From contig DATKPE010000029.1 in the NCBI GenBank assembly GCA_035524335.1, positions 64,918-128,917 of the forward strand: DNA of 64,000 bases, in the 5' to 3' direction. The stretch is from Bacteroidota bacterium. Its GTDB lineage: Bacteria > Bacteroidota > Ignavibacteria > UBA10030 > SZUA-254. Below, piece by piece: positions 29,106 to 37,466 of this stretch. Position 1 is the stretch's first letter. Every line of letters begins with the position of its first letter. The translations under genes and the position numbers were made by a program. The notes under the pieces were generated by a model. It worked only from the letters and a program-made list of their open reading frames with translations. It had not been told where the DNA came from and searched no databases.

Positions 29106-31010
29106 TCAGCTGTTTTTAATATCGTGAAGTCTGCGGAGGAAGTCCTGATGACGGGCGAGGTACGGGCCCGCATCCTCGCCCCGCGCGGTCGCAGTTTTCA
29201 GATCGTTCTGGTTTTCCTCGATCATTCGTTCGAGAAAACGCTTCCGCATCGCGAGGATGGCGTCGTGCGCGATCTGGCGGGAATCGCCGGTCCCGACATC
29301 CACCCCCCGTTCCTCCCACGTTTTGCTCAGGGCGTACTTTTCAAAAACGATATCGGCGACGAACCGCCGCAGATCGGGATCGTCGGCGGAGGAAACGATC
29401 CGCGCCGGATCGACGGGCGTGCCGGCTTCGGCCGACTCCATGAGAAGCTCCGCCAGACGCCGGCCCTCCGGATGGACGAAATCGTCGAGTGTGATCTGGC
29501 TGAAAACCCACTGGACGATCTCCGTTCCCCCGTCCAGCATCGCGTGGAGGAGATCGCGTTCGCCCGGCTGAAGCTCGGCGGCGGCATGGCCCGGCCCTGC
29601 GGCTGGATTCTCCGCGCGCTTCGGCGCCGGACGTTCTTCCCTCCCCGCAGACTTCCGTTCCTCACCCAGTTCCTTCTCGAGCGCACGGTGGAGCGTTGAT
29701 TCATAGAGCCGGTATTTCTGGGCGACCTGCTTGATGTAGAAATCGCGCTTGAGCTCGTCGGTGATCCGGGCGATCGACCTGACGATGCTCCGCACGGTCT
29801 TCGCCTGTCCTTCGGGCGTCGCAAACAGTCCCGCTTCCTCGGCCGTGAGCGCAATGAAATCGACGAACGAAACGGCATTCTCCAGAAGCGATCTGAAACC
29901 CGCCGCGCCCGCAGTCCGGACAAACGTGTCAGGATCCTCCCCGTGCGGCAGTCTTGCCACCCGCACGTCGAGGCCGTTTTCGTGCAGGAGATCGACCCCC
30001 CGGAGCGACGCCTGCGACCCGGCGGAATCGGCGTCATAGACAAGTGTGATCGTTTTTGTATACCTGCCGAGAAGCTGGATCTGATCCTTCGTCAGCGCGG
30101 TGCCGCTCGATGCGACGATATTATGAAAACCGGCCTGAAAGACGCTGATAAGATCGGCGTAGCCTTCGACCAGAATTGCGCCGTCGAGTTCCCGGATGCT
30201 CTCCTTCGCCTGGTTGAGCCCGTACAGAATCCGGCTCTTGTCGTACACGAGCGTCTCGGGAGAATTGATATATTTCCCCTGGATCGGGTCGTCCTCGTAC
30301 AACTTCCGGGCGCCGAACCCGACGACTCTCCCGGTCGGGGTAAAGACGGGGAACATGGCTCTCCCGCGGAAGTAATCGTACCAGGTGCCGTCGGGACGGC
30401 GGCGGGCCAGACCGGTTTTTTCGAGATCCTCCGGCCGGATTTTCTTCTCCCCCGAAAAGGTCACGAACGCATTCCACCCTCTGGGCGCATAGCCCAGCCC
30501 GAACATGCGGATCGTCTCATCGGAAAATCCCCGCCGGTGAAAATAGTCGAGGGCGAACTTTCCTTCCGCGGTGCCGGTGAGGGCCTGATAATAATAAAGG
30601 CCCGCCTCGCGGAGAATCTGGAAGTACTGTTCCTGCAGGCTTGCCGTCTGTTGATCGTCGGCGGAGGGGGCGGGAAGTGCGATGCCGGCTTTCTCCGCGA
30701 GGGTGCGGAGGGCTTCGGGGAACGAGACTTTTTCGAACTCCATCAGGAAGGTGAACACGTTGCCGCCGACGCCACAGCCGAAGCAGTGATACATCTGACG
30801 ATCGGCGGAGACGGTGAAGGAGGGTGTTTTTTCGGTATGGAACGGGCAGAGGCCGAGGTAACTTTTACCCCGTTTCTTCAGCCGGACGACGCTGCCGATG
30901 ATTTCGATGATATCGGTGGCGTTGCGGATTTCATCTATTTTTTCGGGCGGAACGCGCACAGATTGCGGTGAATTCGGGAAGTGTTGCTGGATGAACGGCC
31001 AGAATGTCAT
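29106..31010 (-). CDS. dnaG: DNA primase
   Basis: Zinc-ribbon CPFHTEKTPSFTVSADRQMYHCFGCGVGG; TOPRIM region EGYADLISV...DADSAG. Confidence 0.85.
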   Translation of the reverse strand: MTFWPFIQQHFPNSPQSVRVPPEKIDEIRNATDIIEIIGSVVRLKKRGKSYLGLCPFHTEKTPSFTVSADRQMYHCFGCGVGGNVFTFLMEFEKVSFPEALRTLAEKAGIALPAPSADDQQTASLQEQYFQILREAGLYYYQALTGTAEGKFALDYFHRRGFSDETIRMFGLGYAPRGWNAFVTFSGEKKIRPEDLEKTGLARRRPDGTWYDYFRGRAMFPVFTPTGRVVGFGARKLYEDDPIQGKYINSPETLVYDKSRILYGLNQAKESIRELDGAILVEGYADLISVFQAGFHNIVASSGTALTKDQIQLLGRYTKTITLVYDADSAGSQASLRGVDLLHENGLDVRVARLPHGEDPDTFVRTAGAAGFRSLLENAVSFVDFIALTAEEAGLFATPEGQAKTVRSIVRSIARITDELKRDFYIKQVAQKYRLYESTLHRALEKELGEERKSAGREERPAPKRAENPAAGPGHAAAELQPGERDLLHAMLDGGTEIVQWVFSQITLDDFVHPEGRRLAELLMESAEAGTPVDPARIVSSADDPDLRRFVADIVFEKYALSKTWEERGVDVGTGDSRQIAHDAILAMRKRFLERMIEENQNDLKTATARGEDAGPYLARHQDFLRRLHDIKNS

Positions 31011-31112
31011 CCAAGGTAAGAAAATCGGCCGCCTATAGCAAGAAGGGCCGGGGGAAGAACGACGACGGCCGGTTGTTCGCCGGCCGCCGATCGGTAAAGA
31101 TGTTTCTCGCGC

Positions 31113-32261
31113 TCACCGTTTTGCGGGTACCGGCACCTTTTCCTTTTTGCCGTTCTTCCGCACCCGGGCTTCCTTCCGGAGGAAGGCCTTTTCCACGGGC
31201 GGAACATGGCCGACCGGCTCCTCCTCGAGATCGGGATAGGTGAAGATCTCGTATTTGAAGTTCCGGAGGATGATGTTTTTTCCCGCCCGGCCGAGCACAT
31301 ACTGGGGAAGAAGAGGAATTTTTCCGCCGCCGCCGGGGGCATCGATCACATAGGCGGGGATGGCGAGACCGGAAGTATGGCCCCGCAGTTTGTCCATGAT
31401 CTCCAGCCCTTTCGAGACCGGCGTCCGGAAATGATCGGTCCCGCGGGTGATATCGGCCTGATAGAGATAGTACGGCCTCACGCGCATCGCCAGCAGTTTG
31501 CGCACCAGTTCGAGCATGACGTTCGGATCGTCGTTCACACCCTTCATCAGAACGGCCTGATTGCCCACCGGACAGCCGGCATCGGCAAGCATCTCACACG
31601 CTCTCCTGGCTTCGGGCGTGCATTCCCAGGGATGGTTGAAGTGGGTATTGACGTAGATCGGATGATATTTTTTCAGCATCCTGCAGAGTTTCGGCGTAAT
31701 GCGCTGGGGAAGGACGCACGGCATTTTGGTGCCGAGCCGGATGATCTCCACGTGCGGAATTTCCCGCAATCCCTTGAGGATGCGTTCGAGCAGAAAATCG
31801 GTCAGCATGAGCGGATCCCCGCCCGAGAGAATGACATCCCGGATCTGGGGATGGGAGGCGATATAATCGATCCCGTCCTGGATGTACTTCATGTTGATTT
31901 TCTTCGAATCGCCGACTTTCCGTTTCCGTGTGCAGAAGCGGCAGTACATGGAGCACTGACTCGTCGTCAGGAAAAGGACGCGGTCGGGATAGCGGTGCAC
32001 GATGCTCGGCACGGGACTGTGGGAGTCTTCCGCGAGAGGGTCTTCCGGCAGGCCGCCGTCCTCCAGCTCCTGAGCGTCCGGGATGCACTGCAGCCAGATC
32101 GGATCGCCGGGGGCGCGGATAAGGCTGAGATAGTATGGATTGATGCGGATGTGGAAGAGTGAGTTGAGTTTTTCCGCCATATCCTTTTCGAAGGAAAAGC
32201 GCTCCACCAGATCCTTTGCGCTGTCGACGCTCTGCCGGAGCATTTCTTGCCAGAGTTCCAT
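31113..32261 (-). CDS. kamA: L-lysine 2,3-aminomutase (KamA-type radical SAM)
   Basis: CSMYCRFCTRKR radical-SAM motif. Block-by-block identity to Clostridium KamA recalled from memory (HRYPDRVL, HFRTPVSKG, DAPGGGGK). Lys-binding Asp equivalents retained (YQAD, VIDAPGG). C-terminal CxCxxC Zn motif absent. Confidence 0.8.
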   Translation of the reverse strand: MELWQEMLRQSVDSAKDLVERFSFEKDMAEKLNSLFHIRINPYYLSLIRAPGDPIWLQCIPDAQELEDGGLPEDPLAEDSHSPVPSIVHRYPDRVLFLTTSQCSMYCRFCTRKRKVGDSKKINMKYIQDGIDYIASHPQIRDVILSGGDPLMLTDFLLERILKGLREIPHVEIIRLGTKMPCVLPQRITPKLCRMLKKYHPIYVNTHFNHPWECTPEARRACEMLADAGCPVGNQAVLMKGVNDDPNVMLELVRKLLAMRVRPYYLYQADITRGTDHFRTPVSKGLEIMDKLRGHTSGLAIPAYVIDAPGGGGKIPLLPQYVLGRAGKNIILRNFKYEIFTYPDLEEEPVGHVPPVEKAFLRKEARVRKNGKKEKVPVPAKR

Positions 32262-32285
32262 ACTTCTGATCTACATCCTCCTTCC

Positions 32286-32789
32286 TTACAGTGAGAGATA
32301 TTTTCCGTAAACGACCAGGTCGTCTCCCGGCCGGTAATAATCCCGGATGCGTGCGACTTCCTCATACGCGTTCCGGAGGTAAAACATGCGTGTCGGCTCG
32401 TACGACGGCTGTGACGAGGTTTCGGCCACCATAAGGCGTCCGCCGGAAGCCCGCGCCGTCTCTTCGGCATGACGGAGCAGGAGTCTGCCGAGCCCCTGAT
32501 TGTGGGCCTCGGGTTTGACCGCAATCCAGTACAGGTCGAACGTACCCGCCGTCATCGGCGTCGGCCCGATGCAGTAGTATCCGACAACCTCGTTCTCCTG
32601 CCGGACCGCTGTTGCGATGATGTAATCGGTCTGGCCGGGATCGCCGAGAACGGCGTCGATCAGCTCGAGGGCCACGCGGACTTCGTCGTGCGAAAAGACG
32701 CCGGTGCCCCGCAGAATCGCCGCAAGCGGTTCCCGGTCGCGGGCCTCGAGGTTCCTGACGGTTGCTAGGATATCCGTTCCAGCGTGCAT
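32286..32789 (-). CDS. GNAT family N-acetyltransferase (candidate beta-lysine N-acetyltransferase)
   Basis: GNAT core VVGYYCIGP...LYWIAVKPEAHNQGLGRLLLRHAEE. 24 nt upstream of kamA on the same strand. Confidence 0.65.
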   Translation of the reverse strand: MHAGTDILATVRNLEARDREPLAAILRGTGVFSHDEVRVALELIDAVLGDPGQTDYIIATAVRQENEVVGYYCIGPTPMTAGTFDLYWIAVKPEAHNQGLGRLLLRHAEETARASGGRLMVAETSSQPSYEPTRMFYLRNAYEEVARIRDYYRPGDDLVVYGKYLSL

Positions 32790-33847
32790 TCGATGATCTT
32801 GCCGATCAGGTCTTCGAAGGAATATCCAAACGTCTTCGCGGAGCGGGCGAAACCCGCGTCGTCGGAGATGTCGGGATTCGGATTCACCTCAAGGATGAAC
32901 GGCTGGTGATCCTTGCTCAGCCGGAAATCGACCCGCGCATAGTCGCGGCACCCGATGACCTGGTACGCTTTCAGCGCCATCTCCTTGATCGACGCCTCCA
33001 GCGCCGGGGTCAGCGGGGCGGGACAGATTCCCCTGGTGTGCTCGTATTCGACCGTCCCCTTCATCCATTTCGCGTTATAGCTGATAATCCGGTGGAATTC
33101 CTTCGGAAGGGTCGACATGTCGATCTCGGAAATCGGAAAGGCCACCGGCTTCTTGTTCCCCATGATCGCCACGTTCAGTTCCCGGCCGTCGATATACTCC
33201 TCGACGAGGGCGGGCTGATCGAACTGCCGGAAGATATACCGCACCCGTTTCCTGAGCTCCTCCGCCGAGTTGACGATCGAATTGGAATCTATCCCGATGC
33301 TCGCGTCCTCCCGGGACGGCTTGACGATCAGCGGGTACCGGAGGTTCTCGTCGGGCACGATCTTCATCGGACTGCGGATCACCTGAAACCGCGGGGTCGG
33401 CAGGCCGTGGTAGAGCAGAATCTCCTTCACCCGGGACTTGTTCAGCGCCGTGCCAAGCGTGAGCGGGTCGGATCCGGTGTACGGGATTCCCATCAGCTCA
33501 TAGATGCCGACGGCATGCATTTCATGGATCGACTCATTGCCGACGCTTTCGCAGAGATTGAAAATCACGTCGGGCTGTTCATCCTTGAGAAAGGAGACGA
33601 ACCGGGTGATATCCCCGTCGACATTGAACAGCAGTGATTTATAGCCGAGTTGTTGGATCGCCCGGGCGATATCCTCCCGCTCCTCCAGAACGCCCACTTC
33701 GGAAAGATCGGTCAAAACCTCCGCGTCGTTGATGATCAGCTTGCTCCCCTCCTGCAGGATCCCCGCTTCCGACACGAATTTCCGGCCCGCTTTGGTCTGG
33801 ACGGTCGGTTCATTATATATTACCGCAACAGTGATTTTTTTTCTCAT
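32765..33847 (-). CDS. ATP-grasp ligase, D-Ala-D-Ala ligase / L-amino-acid-ligase family
   Basis: Ddl-like motifs GIPYTGSDPLTLG, LIVKPSREDASIG, EEYIDGRELNVAIMG, ILEVNPNPD. Confidence 0.7.
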   Translation of the reverse strand: MRKKITVAVIYNEPTVQTKAGRKFVSEAGILQEGSKLIINDAEVLTDLSEVGVLEEREDIARAIQQLGYKSLLFNVDGDITRFVSFLKDEQPDVIFNLCESVGNESIHEMHAVGIYELMGIPYTGSDPLTLGTALNKSRVKEILLYHGLPTPRFQVIRSPMKIVPDENLRYPLIVKPSREDASIGIDSNSIVNSAEELRKRVRYIFRQFDQPALVEEYIDGRELNVAIMGNKKPVAFPISEIDMSTLPKEFHRIISYNAKWMKGTVEYEHTRGICPAPLTPALEASIKEMALKAYQVIGCRDYARVDFRLSKDHQPFILEVNPNPDISDDAGFARSAKTFGYSFEDLIGKIIECTLERIS

Positions 33848-33856
33848 GAGTGATCC

Positions 33857-35023
33857 TCACGATGAGTGATGTGCGAGGGACGCCTCGGTCTGCCCGAGGC
33901 CGTACCGGTGTGCGGCAAGTGCGAGCACGGACCGGATGAGCTGATTATAGCCGATGCCGGCGGCCCGGGCCGCCTTGGGATAACAGGAATTGTCTTCGGG
34001 ATTCGGAAGAATGCCGGGGAGCGGATTGACTTCTATGATATGCGGGGTCCCCTCGCGGTCGAGGCGCAGGTCGATCCTGCTCCAGTCGCGACAGCGGAGC
34101 ACCCTGTAGGTTTCACGGCAGACTGTTTCGATGGCGGCCTGAAGCGCGGGGGAAAGACGCGCCGGGCATTCGAATATATCGAGAGGTGCGTCGGATCGGT
34201 CCCAAATCCACTTCGCCTCGTACGAATAGACAGGATTGACGCCCGCGGGGAGCGAATCGAACCGGATTTCCACCACGGGCAGAACGGTGCAGTTTTCGCC
34301 GTTGCCGAGCATCGCGACCGTGAATTCGCGGCCGCCGAGAAAATCCTCGACGAGGGCCGCCTGGCCGTATTCCTCGTGAATCCGGCCCACCTGCCCTGCC
34401 AGCTCCGCCCGCGTCCGGACAAGAGATGCGTCGAAGATCCCCTTGCTGGAACCTTCGTGCAGAGGTTTGACAAAGAGCGGAAAGCGGTCCGGCACCCGGC
34501 TGAGATCCCGGGCCGAATTTACGACCGTAAACCGGGCTGTCGGTATATTATAGTAGGAGAGAATTTCCTTTGTTCGCGATTTATCGAGGCAGATCCCCAG
34601 GGTCAGCGGATCGGAACCGGTATAGGGAATGCCGAGCATTTCGAGGAGTGCGGGAACCTGCGCTTCCCGGGAGACACCGTGGAGACCTTCTGCGATGTTG
34701 AAGACGATCTCCGGCCGTTCGGCACGCAGAAGTTCCGGCGCGTTCTCGTCGGCTTCAATCATCACCACATCGTGTGATTCCGCAAGGGCCGCCCTTACCG
34801 CTTCGATGGTTTCAGGCGTGTCCCATTCGGCGTACAGATCGTTGAGATTCAGTTTGGAAGGATGATGCGCAGTGCGCAGCGGGGTGAGAAGAGAGCCACC
34901 TCCGGATTGTTCCGGAGGATCCGTTGAATCATTCGTGCCAGATTGTTGAGTACCATCTTCCTTTTTCTGATTGTAAACAAGCCCAACTCGCATCGGAGTG
35001 ATGTTCGCAGGAAGATCGATCAA
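33857..35023 (-). CDS. ATP-grasp ligase, D-Ala-D-Ala ligase family, paralog with low-complexity N-terminal insertion
   Basis: Shares GIPYTGSDPLTLG, LFVKPLHEGSSKG, EDFLGGREFTVAMLG, IIEVNPLPG with the downstream paralog. Has about 45 aa of extra Ser/Gly/Pro/Gln-rich sequence near the N-terminus. The true start may be ATG 34993 (MRVGLVYNQKK). Confidence 0.7.
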   Translation of the reverse strand: MIDLPANITPMRVGLVYNQKKEDGTQQSGTNDSTDPPEQSGGGSLLTPLRTAHHPSKLNLNDLYAEWDTPETIEAVRAALAESHDVVMIEADENAPELLRAERPEIVFNIAEGLHGVSREAQVPALLEMLGIPYTGSDPLTLGICLDKSRTKEILSYYNIPTARFTVVNSARDLSRVPDRFPLFVKPLHEGSSKGIFDASLVRTRAELAGQVGRIHEEYGQAALVEDFLGGREFTVAMLGNGENCTVLPVVEIRFDSLPAGVNPVYSYEAKWIWDRSDAPLDIFECPARLSPALQAAIETVCRETYRVLRCRDWSRIDLRLDREGTPHIIEVNPLPGILPNPEDNSCYPKAARAAGIGYNQLIRSVLALAAHRYGLGQTEASLAHHSS

Positions 35024-35105
35024 GTAACTCGTGCAGTCCTCTCAAGTTGTTCGACATCATTGAGATCCTTCCCTTCTCTCAATGGTTAATTACGATTGCC
35101 TGAGT

Positions 35106-35133
35106 AATATAATCATTTTAACCTATTTGTCAA
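35106..35133 (-). promoter_or_regulatory. sigma70-like promoter TTGACA-N16-TATATT for the ATP-grasp/GNAT/kamA operon
   Basis: On the minus strand: TTGACA (35133..35128), 16-nt spacer, TATATT (35111..35106), in an AT-rich 208-bp intergenic region about 75-110 nt upstream of the first ATP-grasp start. Confidence 0.4.
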
Positions 35134-35231
35134 GAAAAAAATGCTCCAACGAGGGTAAAAATGACTTCGGATCTCCGGTCACCGTCCGACTTTCATCCTC
35201 CGGTATCGCGGGACCTTCAGCCATCGGATGA

Positions 35232-37466
35232 TCAGCCGACCTGCATGAGGGTCAGCGCGTCCTTCCATCTCTCCGCGAGCTGTCTCCGGAGTGAACGATG
35301 CCCGGCTTCACGGAGATGCGGATCCTCCTGCACGATCCGGAACGCCTCGGAGCGGGCGCGGGTCAGAAGCTCCCCGTCGGTCACAAGGTTGGCGATCTGA
35401 AGTTCCGGAATACCGCTCTGCCGGGTTCCGAAAAATTCACCCGGACCCCTCAATTCCAGATCAATTTCGGCAATTTTGAAGCCGTCCGTGGTCTCGACCA
35501 TCGTCGCCAGACGGCGGACCGACTTCTGCCGTTCCGCGTCCTCCCCCTCGGTGAGGCGGGAAGAGGGCGCACGCTTTACCCCCCGCGCCAGCCAATCCTC
35601 CGTCACCAGAAGACAGTACGACTGCTCCCCCCCTCTCCCGACCCGGCCTCTCAGCTGGTGCAGCTGGGAAAGGCCGAACCGTTCCGCATGCTGGATGACC
35701 ATGACGGTGGCATTCGGTATGTCGATCCCCACCTCGACCACCGTTGTCGCGACAAGAATGTTGATCTTTCCATCCTTCATCCCGGTCATGACGGTATCTT
35801 TTTCGTCTGCGGACATCTTTCCATGGAGGAGACCGACGGTGAGATCCGGAAATATTTTCGTCCTGAGTTCCTCATAGCTCTCGGTCGCGGCCCTGAGGTC
35901 GAGCTTCTCCGACTCCTCCACCAGAGGATAGATGATATAGACCTGACGGCCCGATTCGATCTCCTGCCGGATGAATTTATATACCGACTCCCGTCGTGAA
36001 TCGGGAAAAATTACCGTTTTTACAGGCTTCCGCTCCTTCGGCAGTTCGTCGATGATTGAAACATCCAGGTCTCCGTACAGCGTCAGGGAGAGTGTCCTCG
36101 GTATGGGGGTCGCGGTCATGACCAGGATATCGGGCTGGATACCGGGCATGTCCGCTCCCGCCGCCGATTTCTCGCGGAGAGCAAGCCGCTGAGCCACTCC
36201 GAAGCGGTGCTGTTCATCGATGACAATAAGGCCAAGCCGGGCGAATTCCACCTGCTCCTGAATGAGCGCATGGGTTCCGATGACGATGGAGGCTCTTCCA
36301 TTCCGCACGTCGTCCAGCACATCCTGCCGCAGGCGTTGTCGCTGGCCGCCGACCAGGAGACGCATGGTGATATCCGTTCCCCCGAGCATCGATGCGATGT
36401 TGCGGTAATGCTGTTCCGCCAGGATTTCGGTCGGCGCCATGAGCGCCGCCTGGTAGCCGTTTTCAGCCGCAATGAGCATGGCGATCAGAGCGACGACGGT
36501 TTTCCCGCTTCCGACATCCCCCTGCAGGAGGCGGTTCATCGGCTTCCCGGAAGCCATATCCGCGGTGATCTCTTTGATTACCCGCGTCTGCGCCGCGGTG
36601 AGACGGAACGGAAGACGGTCGACAAGGGCCCGCGCCAGTTTGCTCTGTACGCTGAAGACGATCCCGGGGAGTTGATCCTTCATTGCCGACCGCCTGAGGG
36701 CGAGAAGCATCTGGAGGGAAAAAAGTTCGTCGAATTTCAGACGCTCCCTCGCCCGGCCGAGGAGCAGTTCTGATTCGGGAAAATGAATATTGGCCAGCGC
36801 TTCGCGGACGCCGAGGTAACCGAGACGCCGGAGAAGCTCATCAGGAAGATGTTCCGGGACGAGATCGAGAAATTCGTCGATGACCGTCCGGAGAATCCTG
36901 CGGAGGCCTTTCACATGGAGATTGACGTCCTTCAGGTTCTCGGAGGAACCGTACTTGGGGACGATACCGGTGGTGTGCAGAAAACCGGAAGGACCTTCGT
37001 CCTCATCATCGGGGGTCAGCCGGTCGATGGAGGGATGAATGAACTGGGGTCGTCCGCGGTAGGCAGTGACTTTGCCGGAAACAGCCAGAAGGTCGCCCGG
37101 GGCGAATGCCTTCCTGAAGTAGGAGACGCTTCGGAAAAAGATGAGAGGGATCGTGCCGGAATCGTCGCCGAGAATAATGATGAGCCGCTGGCGGGGCGGG
37201 CGCCCGACCAGATCGACAGCCCTGACGGTCCCGACGGCGGTTGTCCAGCGCTCCGAGCCGATCGTGCCGGCGAGCCGGGCAACGGGAAGAGCCGAACCGA
37301 GGTCAATGTACCCGTACGGAAAATAGTAGAGGAGATCGTAGACTCTGGCAATGCCGTGCTCCTTCAGCGCCTCGGCCCGTTTCGGCCCGATGCCGCGCAC
37401 ATACTGCACGGGATCATCCAGAGAGCGGCGGTTTACGGGAGAGCTCATACGCGGGGGAATCGGCAC
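35232..37466 (-). CDS. recG: ATP-dependent DNA helicase RecG
   Basis: 744 aa; wedge domain then DEAD-box helicase motifs (GDVGSGKT, DEQHRFG); N-terminal HhH GIGPKRAEAL. Confidence 0.85.
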   Translation of the reverse strand: MPIPPRMSSPVNRRSLDDPVQYVRGIGPKRAEALKEHGIARVYDLLYYFPYGYIDLGSALPVARLAGTIGSERWTTAVGTVRAVDLVGRPPRQRLIIILGDDSGTIPLIFFRSVSYFRKAFAPGDLLAVSGKVTAYRGRPQFIHPSIDRLTPDDEDEGPSGFLHTTGIVPKYGSSENLKDVNLHVKGLRRILRTVIDEFLDLVPEHLPDELLRRLGYLGVREALANIHFPESELLLGRARERLKFDELFSLQMLLALRRSAMKDQLPGIVFSVQSKLARALVDRLPFRLTAAQTRVIKEITADMASGKPMNRLLQGDVGSGKTVVALIAMLIAAENGYQAALMAPTEILAEQHYRNIASMLGGTDITMRLLVGGQRQRLRQDVLDDVRNGRASIVIGTHALIQEQVEFARLGLIVIDEQHRFGVAQRLALREKSAAGADMPGIQPDILVMTATPIPRTLSLTLYGDLDVSIIDELPKERKPVKTVIFPDSRRESVYKFIRQEIESGRQVYIIYPLVEESEKLDLRAATESYEELRTKIFPDLTVGLLHGKMSADEKDTVMTGMKDGKINILVATTVVEVGIDIPNATVMVIQHAERFGLSQLHQLRGRVGRGGEQSYCLLVTEDWLARGVKRAPSSRLTEGEDAERQKSVRRLATMVETTDGFKIAEIDLELRGPGEFFGTRQSGIPELQIANLVTDGELLTRARSEAFRIVQEDPHLREAGHRSLRRQLAERWKDALTLMQVG

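Follow-up and report, generated by a model that had tools for sequence, protein, structure and literature searches.

The DNA considered here is a stretch of 64,000 nt (the window) of contig DATKPE010000029.1 (assembly GCA_035524335.1), from an uncultured Bacteroidota/Ignavibacteria-like bacterium, and its subject is a minus-strand operon at window positions 31113-35023 that combines an aminomutase, an acetyltransferase and two ligases. In order of transcription the genes encode two ATP-grasp ligases with the fold of D-alanine--D-alanine ligase (Ddl), here called AG1 and AG2, an acetyltransferase of the GNAT family, and KamA, an enzyme of the lysine 2,3-aminomutase type. AG1 (33857-35023) has 388 aa when read from a TTG at 35023 and 378 aa from an ATG at 34993, AG2 (32765-33847) has 360 aa, the GNAT (32286-32789) 167 aa and KamA (31113-32261) 382 aa, all on the minus strand. 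An earlier interpretation made from the letters alone (the sequence-only reading) had described four tightly spaced genes, and the open reading frame (ORF) listing confirms the frames, their order and their spacing: AG1 and AG2 are separated by 9 nt, AG2 and the GNAT overlap by 25 nt, and 24 nt lie between the GNAT and KamA. The operon is flanked by recG upstream and dnaG downstream, a position that is kept throughout Ignavibacteria-like genomes, and the same locus is seen on 144-kb and 203-kb metagenome contigs. The layout, together with the conservation described below, supports the view that the four genes form a single, conserved unit of transcription.

Conservation of the neighborhood was checked in 80 loci, taken from one genome per species and seeded with two AG2 motifs, in which gene content was scored by tblastn with the four window proteins. 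All four genes are found in 49 of the 80 loci, and in 48 they stand in the same order on one strand; AG1 adjoins AG2 in 67, the GNAT is present in 61, and KamA lies within the flank in 55. Because 49 loci carry the full set, 48 of them in the same order, the arrangement is not a chance juxtaposition. The bacterial carriers are Ignavibacteria, Melioribacter (metagenome-assembled genomes, MAGs, only), Kapaibacterium, the cultured Stygiobacter electus, Desulfuromonadaceae, other Deltaproteobacteria and Auribacterota. The ligase pair is also present in archaeal MAGs of the Thermoplasmatales, Bathyarchaeota, Hadarchaeota and Aenigmarchaeota; in all but the last of these groups KamA stands next to the pair or is fused. 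A further search seeded with 2R7H, the closest solved relative of the GNAT, adds the complete genome of Desulfovibrio mangrovi, an Oleidesulfovibrio (G20-like) contig, Oceanidesulfovibrio indonesiensis, a Planctomycetota MAG and another contig; gene order in these clusters is KamA-AG1-AG2-(HDAC-family protein)-GNAT, where HDAC denotes histone deacetylase. In a full-library HMMER search the AG1 family extends to 1363 representative clusters (50% identity) at E < 1e-30, in bacteria and archaea. A solitary AG2-like paralogue (41-44% identity) occurs in seven of the sampled loci (L033, L039, L040, L042, L050, L060 and L072; for example L060:7076-9038) with no AG1, KamA or GNAT, beside peptidase-C39-like and isochorismatase-family proteins, and these loci probably represent a different system.

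The best defined member of the operon is KamA. It matches the Pfam families Radical_SAM and LAM_C and aligns over 352 residues with the lysine 2,3-aminomutase of Clostridium subterminale (2A5H; E 7e-125). In that enzyme Asp293 and Asp330 bind the epsilon-ammonium group of lysine, and both are substituted in glutamate and arginine 2,3-aminomutases. Residue-by-residue alignment places D270 and D307 of the window protein at these two positions and K314 at Lys337, which carries pyridoxal 5'-phosphate (PLP), so that the claim that both amine-binding aspartates are kept is borne out. The two aspartates and the PLP lysine are likewise kept in 59/59 full-length cluster-linked homologues, the sole exception being one truncated ORF, and the radical-SAM (S-adenosylmethionine) CxxxCxxC motif (CSMYCRFC, residues 103-110) is invariant in all 60 aligned sequences, that is, the window KamA and 59 cluster-linked homologues. 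Because the Cys triad, both aspartates and the PLP lysine are conserved, KamA is predicted to be an authentic enzyme of the lysine 2,3-aminomutase type, with beta-lysine as its expected product. It scores 297 bits on the KamA-family model TIGR00238 (cut-off 199) and 233 bits on the EpmB model (cut-off 369). On the AblA equivalog TIGR03820 it reaches 472 bits against a cut-off of 525, a shortfall explained by its short form, which spans model positions 31-362 of 417. The last ~55 AblA positions (363-417) are missing; the protein ends at residue 382 in a Lys-rich tail without cysteines, and the equivalent of Cys268 is Asp. The window KamA lacks the Cys268 and C-terminal cysteines of the Zn site of the clostridial enzyme. 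The Desulfovibrio-type KamA proteins are longer, at 431-484 aa.

The two ligases match Pfam Dala_Dala_lig_C (PF07478) with E 5e-35 (AG1) and 2e-41 (AG2). They are paralogues of each other, as had been proposed from an identical block, with 39% identity over 280 aa (E 8e-67) and the shared GIPYTGSDPLTLG. The predicted AG1 model (AlphaFold2) has a mean per-residue confidence (pLDDT) of 89 and a predicted template-modeling (TM) score, pTM, of 0.87, and its best Foldseek matches are DdlB structures, with TM scores of 0.80-0.84 at 24-28% identity. The low-complexity N-terminal insertion noticed in one ligase is real: it occupies AG1 residues 14-46 (numbered from the ATG) and is modeled as a disordered loop with pLDDT < 50. 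In profile searches the solved relatives are the Ddl/Van ligases first and then the L-amino-acid ligase BL00235 (E 7.5e-21), the subfamily itself having no solved member; neither PylC nor any other characterized non-Ddl ligase came out as the closest solved relative. Minor similarities extend to the ATP-grasp domains of cyanophycin synthase (E ~1e-6) and, weakly, to 3LN7 gshAB and the Pfam families RimK and TTL.

Residues were compared by aligning 59 AG1 and 74 AG2 sequences to Escherichia coli DdlB, whose numbering is used. The equivalents of the ATP/Mg and acyl-phosphate residues K97, K144, E180, E187, K215, R255, D257, E270 and N272 are invariant in both groups. In Ddl, D-Ala is bound by the Glu15-Ser150-Tyr216 triad, His63 and Ser281/Leu282. 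These residues are replaced: H63E and Y216W are invariant in both paralogues, L282C is specific to AG1, and G149D, S150A, G276D, S281A and L282G are specific to AG2, changes that make the acceptor-side loop of AG2 acidic. The N-terminal GGxSxE segment of Ddl does not align, and AG1 has a conserved A-E-x-D around the same place. Neither ligase reaches the curated Ddl threshold (NF002378, cut-off 243 bits), AG1 scoring 188 and AG2 175, and scores on all equivalog models lie far under their cut-offs. The window holds no further Ddl-like gene. Nor does a cell-wall context surround the pair, the neighbors being KamA and the GNAT, the flanks recG and dnaG, and the carriers in part archaeal. The sub-threshold scores, H63E/Y216W and the altered loop for the second D-Ala rule out canonical ddl genes; because the scores fall below the cut-offs, the D-Ala residues are replaced and the genes occur in archaea without a wall, the separation from canonical Ddl made in the sequence-only reading is supported, and AG1 and AG2 are predicted to be catalytically intact paralogues of the Ddl fold with a non-canonical role.

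The GNAT is the member for which the earlier interpretation does not stand. KamA beside a GNAT had been taken for the known route to N-epsilon-acetyl-beta-lysine, of the ablA/ablB or kamA-yodP type. AblB-type acetyltransferases are two-domain proteins of about 270-290 aa. The window protein matches Pfam Acetyltransf_1 (E 3e-11), has only weak NCBIfam matches at E <= 0.001, to rimI (42 bits) and AAC(6'), and shows no match to the AblB-type NCBIfam model. Its closest solved relative is PDB 2R7H (E 2e-32), a protein of a Desulfovibrio strain solved by structural genomics and known only under the label 'putative D-alanine N-acetyltransferase', with mycothiol synthase MshD a distant second. The length of 167 aa, the lack of an AblB match and the 2R7H type rule out identity with AblB or YodP. 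The GNAT is not a homologue of either, and membership of the operon in the acetyl-beta-lysine route therefore fails; the resemblance is one of logic only.

Gene fusions tie the ligases to the other two enzymes. A single polypeptide of 738 or 739 aa combines KamA with AG1 in the Thermoplasmatales and Hadarchaeota loci, and AG2 is fused there to a GNAT domain in proteins of 526 and 519 aa. Among the best 150 of the 1363 AG1 clusters there are ~40 tandem double ligases, two KamA-AG1 fusions, one AG1-KamA fusion and three AG2-GNAT fusions. A deltaproteobacterial MAG adds a GNAT-methyltransferase fusion (L051, 8143-9327), and in two other loci a SAM methyltransferase gene directly follows the GNAT gene (L046:5883-6560 and L047:9466-10122); in all three loci a RimI-like GNAT gene comes next. 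The best match of the methyltransferase is the phospholipid N-methyltransferase PmtA, at 144 bits, below the cut-off. The fusions form a linear chain, KamA-AG1-AG2-GNAT-(methyltransferase), whose KamA-AG1-AG2-GNAT order is also the gene order of the Desulfovibrio-type clusters, and on these two grounds we infer that the chain follows the order of the pathway. Synteny across phyla and independent fusions together support a functional coupling of the ligases to KamA and the GNAT. Thus, of the proposal that beta-lysine or acetyl-beta-lysine is ligated to further units, the coupling holds, while acetylation before ligation is disfavored, since the chain puts acetylation after both ligations.

Variant contexts bear on the kind of compound that may be made. 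In 10 loci from Deltaproteobacteria and Nitrospinae MAGs (L038, L046, L047, L051, L053, L055, L063, L064, L069 and L070; for example L053:4355-8966) a gene for a pyruvoyl-dependent arginine decarboxylase stands directly upstream of the ligase pair, with no KamA in the flank. Several of these loci have SpeY-like (deoxyhypusine-synthase homologue) and SpeB-like (arginase-family) genes ahead of the decarboxylase, with overlapping or near-abutting ORFs, so that the polyamine genes and the ligases apparently belong to one operon. SpeY, SpeB and the pyruvoyl-dependent decarboxylase are genes of agmatine-dependent homospermidine synthesis (J Biol Chem 2026, PMC13625781), in a report that does not mention the ligases. 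Different ligase substrates in the arginine-decarboxylase loci were considered and rejected, as AG1 has no group-specific conserved positions and AG2 has a single Y/F difference. Either kamA lies elsewhere in these genomes, or beta-lysine is not an obligate substrate. Three of the loci have a third, divergent ligase-like ORF of ~305 aa between the arginine decarboxylase and AG1 (L046:2077-3015, L047:5949-6854 and L051:5173-6093), with weak matches to RimK/LysX and ATPgrasp_ST.

A second variation is a member of the HDAC/acetylpolyamine-amidohydrolase family (PF00850), ~580 aa long with a weak N-terminal GNAT-like region, in four of the five clusters reached from 2R7H (L084:10629-12386, L086:6250-8004, L087:6265-8004 and L088:6211-8004). 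Three loci have its gene flanked by AG2 and the GNAT, and in D. mangrovi the gene comes directly after the GNAT; neither the window nor any of the 80 AG2-seeded loci carries it. Because of the HDAC-family, methyltransferase and agmatine/homospermidine contexts, the variants point to reversible N-acetylation or to N-methylation of an amine-rich compound, and to a tie with polyamine metabolism. The product had been labeled an osmolyte; nothing in the present data supports that label, and the HDAC-family and agmatine/homospermidine contexts point at least equally to the metabolism of a polyamine-like polycation. Two further proteins of these clusters are a 174-aa CxxCxxCC (PF03692) protein between KamA and AG1 (L088:3671-4195) and a 112-aa protein just before KamA (L086:2568-2906) with no family match.

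Expression signals are recognizable at both ends of the operon. The proposed TTGACA-N16-TATATT promoter, of the sigma-70 type, lies on the minus strand at 35106-35133, with the -35 hexamer at 35133-35128, a 16-nt spacer and the -10 hexamer at 35111-35106, and it matches 11/12 consensus positions. The two hexamers, like a GCATTTTT tract upstream of them, do not vary among eight relatives, although the neighboring intergenic DNA has diverged, and they constitute a phylogenetic footprint, which upholds the promoter. Between promoter and AG1 a leader block of ~35 nt (35024-35058, minus strand) is conserved at the nucleotide level in the eight relatives and holds a GAGAGGA Shine-Dalgarno-like motif ~13 nt ahead of the TTG start. 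GAGAGGA could pair with a conserved TCTTCC in AG1 codons 4-6. A search for riboswitches or leader RNAs gave no Rfam match in 30900-35400 at E <= 1, and RNAalifold run on this leader block returned a weak hairpin of -1.8 kcal/mol without covariation.

The start of AG1 is probably the TTG at 35023 rather than the ATG at 34993 used by public gene callers, to judge from codon replacement: three of the eight relatives have CTT, CTC or TTA where the ATG would stand, while the TTG is kept in six of them and is followed by residues, I/L-D-L-P, that are conserved at the amino-acid level. A small frame 5' of AG1, RGLHELLDRSS, was considered as a precursor or carrier peptide and rejected, since its start codon is missing or it is interrupted by a stop in relatives (L021 and L007 among them) and it is thus not maintained; the Shine-Dalgarno motif and the true N-terminal codons of AG1 account better for its apparent conservation. 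No precursor ORF of the graspetide/microviridin type and no LysW-type carrier ORF was met beside the ligases, where the intergenic gaps are just 9 and 24 nt. At the other end, a pattern scan found a GC-rich, terminator-like hairpin with a 10-bp stem (31063-31089, minus strand) 24 nt past the KamA stop and ahead of dnaG; its T tail is weak and such sites are no more numerous than in shuffled sequences, so it is only suggestive of a terminator. The Desulfovibrio-type clusters are preceded by a gene for a sigma-54 activator (L084:4857-6569, L085:4874-6465 and L086:762-2903), and in D. mangrovi a sigma-54-like promoter, TGGCATATCTGTTGCT (TGGCAT-N5-TTGCT), lies ~110 nt before kamA together with GGAAC-N6-GTTCC palindromes, which recur in the G20-like contig.

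In light of these data, the operon is best read as a self-contained cytoplasmic module that makes a small beta-lysine-containing amide or peptide, an intracellular small molecule, to which we assign a probability of roughly 0.55. The first step, conversion of L-lysine to beta-lysine by the radical-SAM/PLP enzyme KamA, would be the well-supported one. AG1 would then accept beta-lysine directly, most likely phosphorylating its carboxylate and coupling it to an amine partner, as the fusions and the analogy with PylC acting on the PylB product suggest; AG2, with its acidic acceptor-side loop, would add a second unit to a cationic amine of the intermediate; and the GNAT would acetylate a remaining free amine of the ligation product. 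In the related clusters the acetyl group may be removed by the HDAC/acetylpolyamine-amidohydrolase-type enzyme, or the product N-methylated by the PmtA-like methyltransferase. The partner substrates may be amino acids, further beta-lysine units or polyamines, agmatine and homospermidine among them. No transporter, resistance, immunity, precursor-peptide or target-protein genes lie in or beside the clusters examined, and PADLOC gave no defense-system match except a trivial radical-SAM one. Because no such gene and no defense signature accompany the module, and because its position is a housekeeping one, an intracellular small molecule is favored: probably the cell retains the product as a solute or polycation, with acetylation adjusting its charge, and a role as cell-wall precursor or exported antibiotic is unlikely.

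Several points weigh against this account. Every step after KamA is read from context. The 10 arginine-decarboxylase loci carry the ligase pair with no KamA in the flank, and KamA-less and KamA-linked loci do not differ at specificity positions beyond the one Y/F position of AG2. The GNAT fused to AG2 in archaea belongs to another Pfam type (Acetyltransf_3) than that of the window and may not be its orthologue. Seeding with AG2 motifs biases the 80-locus sample toward AG2 relatives. The literature covered was open-access only, and in it the four-gene set is described in no full text, including papers on homospermidine, on the Desulfovibrio sigma-54 regulome and on a G20 mutant library, and a review of elongation factor P (EF-P).

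A narrower and rather improbable form of the small-molecule proposal is that the module makes a new class of polycation. Acting one after the other, the two ligases would join beta-lysine by amide bonds either to other beta-lysine residues or to one of the polyamines agmatine, putrescine and homospermidine, much as both ends of spermidine are loaded in trypanothione, and the charge would be set by the GNAT and HDAC-family enzymes or by N-methylation. Such a pathway might form a branch of polyamine metabolism in anaerobic bacteria (Ignavibacteria, Desulfovibrionia, Desulfuromonadia and Planctomycetota) and in several archaeal phyla.

Modification of a macromolecule is less probable than that and altogether unlikely. 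Beta-lysine would be attached to a protein (EF-P/IF5A-like or ribosomal) or to an envelope polymer, and the GNAT and HDAC-family enzymes would act on the modified side chain. Beta-lysylation of EF-P is known in other bacteria, GNAT and HDAC families often act on protein lysines, and both KamA and the SpeY-like, deoxyhypusine-synthase-like neighbors of the variant loci recall the chemistry of IF5A and EF-P; moreover, RimK/TTL-type ATP-grasp enzymes modify proteins, and both families are among the weak Pfam matches of the ligases. Yet no target or carrier gene (efp, LysW-like or ribosomal protein) is linked to the module in any locus examined, an EpmA-like gene is absent, and KamA, at 233 bits, stays well short of the 369 bits that the EpmB model requires. 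A single beta-lysylation would need less than two ligases and an acetyltransferase, the nearest structures are Ddl enzymes acting on small molecules, and the module is found in archaea without EF-P and peptidoglycan.

Slightly less likely again is a polymer, in which the ligases would build an acetyl-capped oligo- or poly-amide from beta-lysine, by itself or together with another amino acid, to serve for storage or protection in the manner of cyanophycin or poly-lysine. The paired and fused ligases resemble two-activity polymerases such as cyanophycin synthetase, the RimK and CphA ATP-grasp enzymes are iterative, and the weak cyanophycin synthase similarity noted above points the same way. The ligases here, however, are compact and of the Ddl type, with no primer-binding or extra domains; known polymerases need no GNAT or deacetylase partner; and a degrading peptidase such as cyanophycinase is linked in none of the loci examined. 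An exported bioactive beta-lysine peptide, following the logic of streptothricin, blasticidin or bacilysin, is more doubtful still. Several antibiotic pathways pair a KamA-family mutase with an amide ligase, and among the solved relatives the L-amino-acid ligases of the BL00235 type come second only to Ddl, but the recG-dnaG housekeeping position is conserved in Ignavibacteria-like genomes, exporter, immunity and tailoring genes are absent from the operon, the module is distributed in a vertical-looking manner over many lineages of both domains, and there is no PADLOC or phage association. Least of all can mere adjacency be entertained, with KamA and the GNAT making N-epsilon-acetyl-beta-lysine, as their match to the gene content of that route would allow, beside divergent D-Ala-D-Ala (or D-Ala-D-X) ligases, as the best database name of the pair would have it: fusions join KamA and AG1 in either order and AG2 to a GNAT, the acetyltransferase of the operon is not of the AblB type, the ligases fall short of the Ddl cut-offs and lack the D-Ala residues, and archaeal carriers lack a wall.

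If the small-molecule reading is right, the module would add to a short list. Only a few fates of beta-lysine are known, namely fermentation, N-epsilon-acetyl-beta-lysine, EF-P modification and a few antibiotics, and the module would be a further and apparently widespread one. NCBIfam release 20 (June 2026) contains no specific model for AG1, AG2 or the GNAT, nor a family for the HDAC-type partner, and the public names are generic; the suspicion in the sequence-only reading that the four-gene combination was undescribed thus agrees with the lack of a curated NCBIfam family and of a description in the open-access literature covered. The identity of the product would assign a function to thousands of genes named 'D-alanine--D-alanine ligase' or 'ATP-grasp domain protein', and would correct a mis-annotation that inflates apparent cell-wall gene counts, archaea included. 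The compound could prove to be a novel compatible solute, or an analogue of the polyamines, that matters for life in anoxic sediments and groundwater. Handles on it are the enzyme order suggested by the fusions, the solved 2R7H structure, which has no assigned function, and cultured or tractable hosts such as D. alaskensis G20-like strains, D. mangrovi and Stygiobacter.

There is a family resemblance between the module and several known systems. The AblA/AblB pair of methanogens and green sulfur bacteria and the Bacillus kamA-yodP pair likewise place a lysine 2,3-aminomutase with lysine-specific residues beside a GNAT, with beta-lysine as the committed intermediate. The present operon differs in its 167-aa 2R7H-type GNAT, in its short KamA with Asp for Cys268, and in its two linked or fused ligases; because the ligases are linked and fused to both partners, acetyl-beta-lysine would be at most an intermediate or a substructure. 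PylB and PylC share the succession of a radical-SAM lysine mutase and a Ddl-like ligase that joins the carboxylate of a diamino acid to an amine, whereas KamA is not a PylB homologue, PylC does not appear among the solved relatives detected for AG1 and AG2, and the operon lacks PylD but holds a second ligase and an acetyltransferase. In EpmA/EpmB, too, an aminomutase of the KamA family feeds beta-lysine to an ATP-dependent amide ligation, although the ligase there is a LysRS paralogue and not an ATP-grasp enzyme, and neither an EpmA-like gene nor efp is found in the cluster or the related loci.

Ngg and AsnO, which make N-acetylglutaminylglutamine amide (NAGGN), show how a GNAT and an ATP-grasp enzyme can cooperate, fused, in making an N-acetylated dipeptide solute. 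The ATP-grasp domain of Ngg is of the RimK/cyanophycin type, whereas that of the present module is of the Ddl type with KamA for substrate supply, and no AsnO-like amidotransferase lies in or beside the operon. GshF and the glutathionylspermidine and trypanothione synthetases carry out two sequential ATP-dependent amide ligations, often in one polypeptide, and GshF ends in a Ddl-like ATP-grasp domain. Co-localization with polyamine genes in some lineages is a theme shared with this group, the polyamine role suggested here being read from the neighborhood; unlike these enzymes, AG1 and AG2 bear the signature of neither a cysteine nor a glutamate ligase, and there is no sequence orthology. Ddl and VanA have the same three-domain fold (TM 0.80-0.84) and the same ATP/Mg and acyl-phosphate residues. 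They differ from AG1 and AG2 in sequence (24-32% identity) and in the 276-282 loop, and the latter are paired paralogues tied to KamA, not to mur or fts genes, and occur in archaea without murein. Every enzyme family represented in the operon is already known; the novelty lies in their conserved and fused combination and in the product that it would make.

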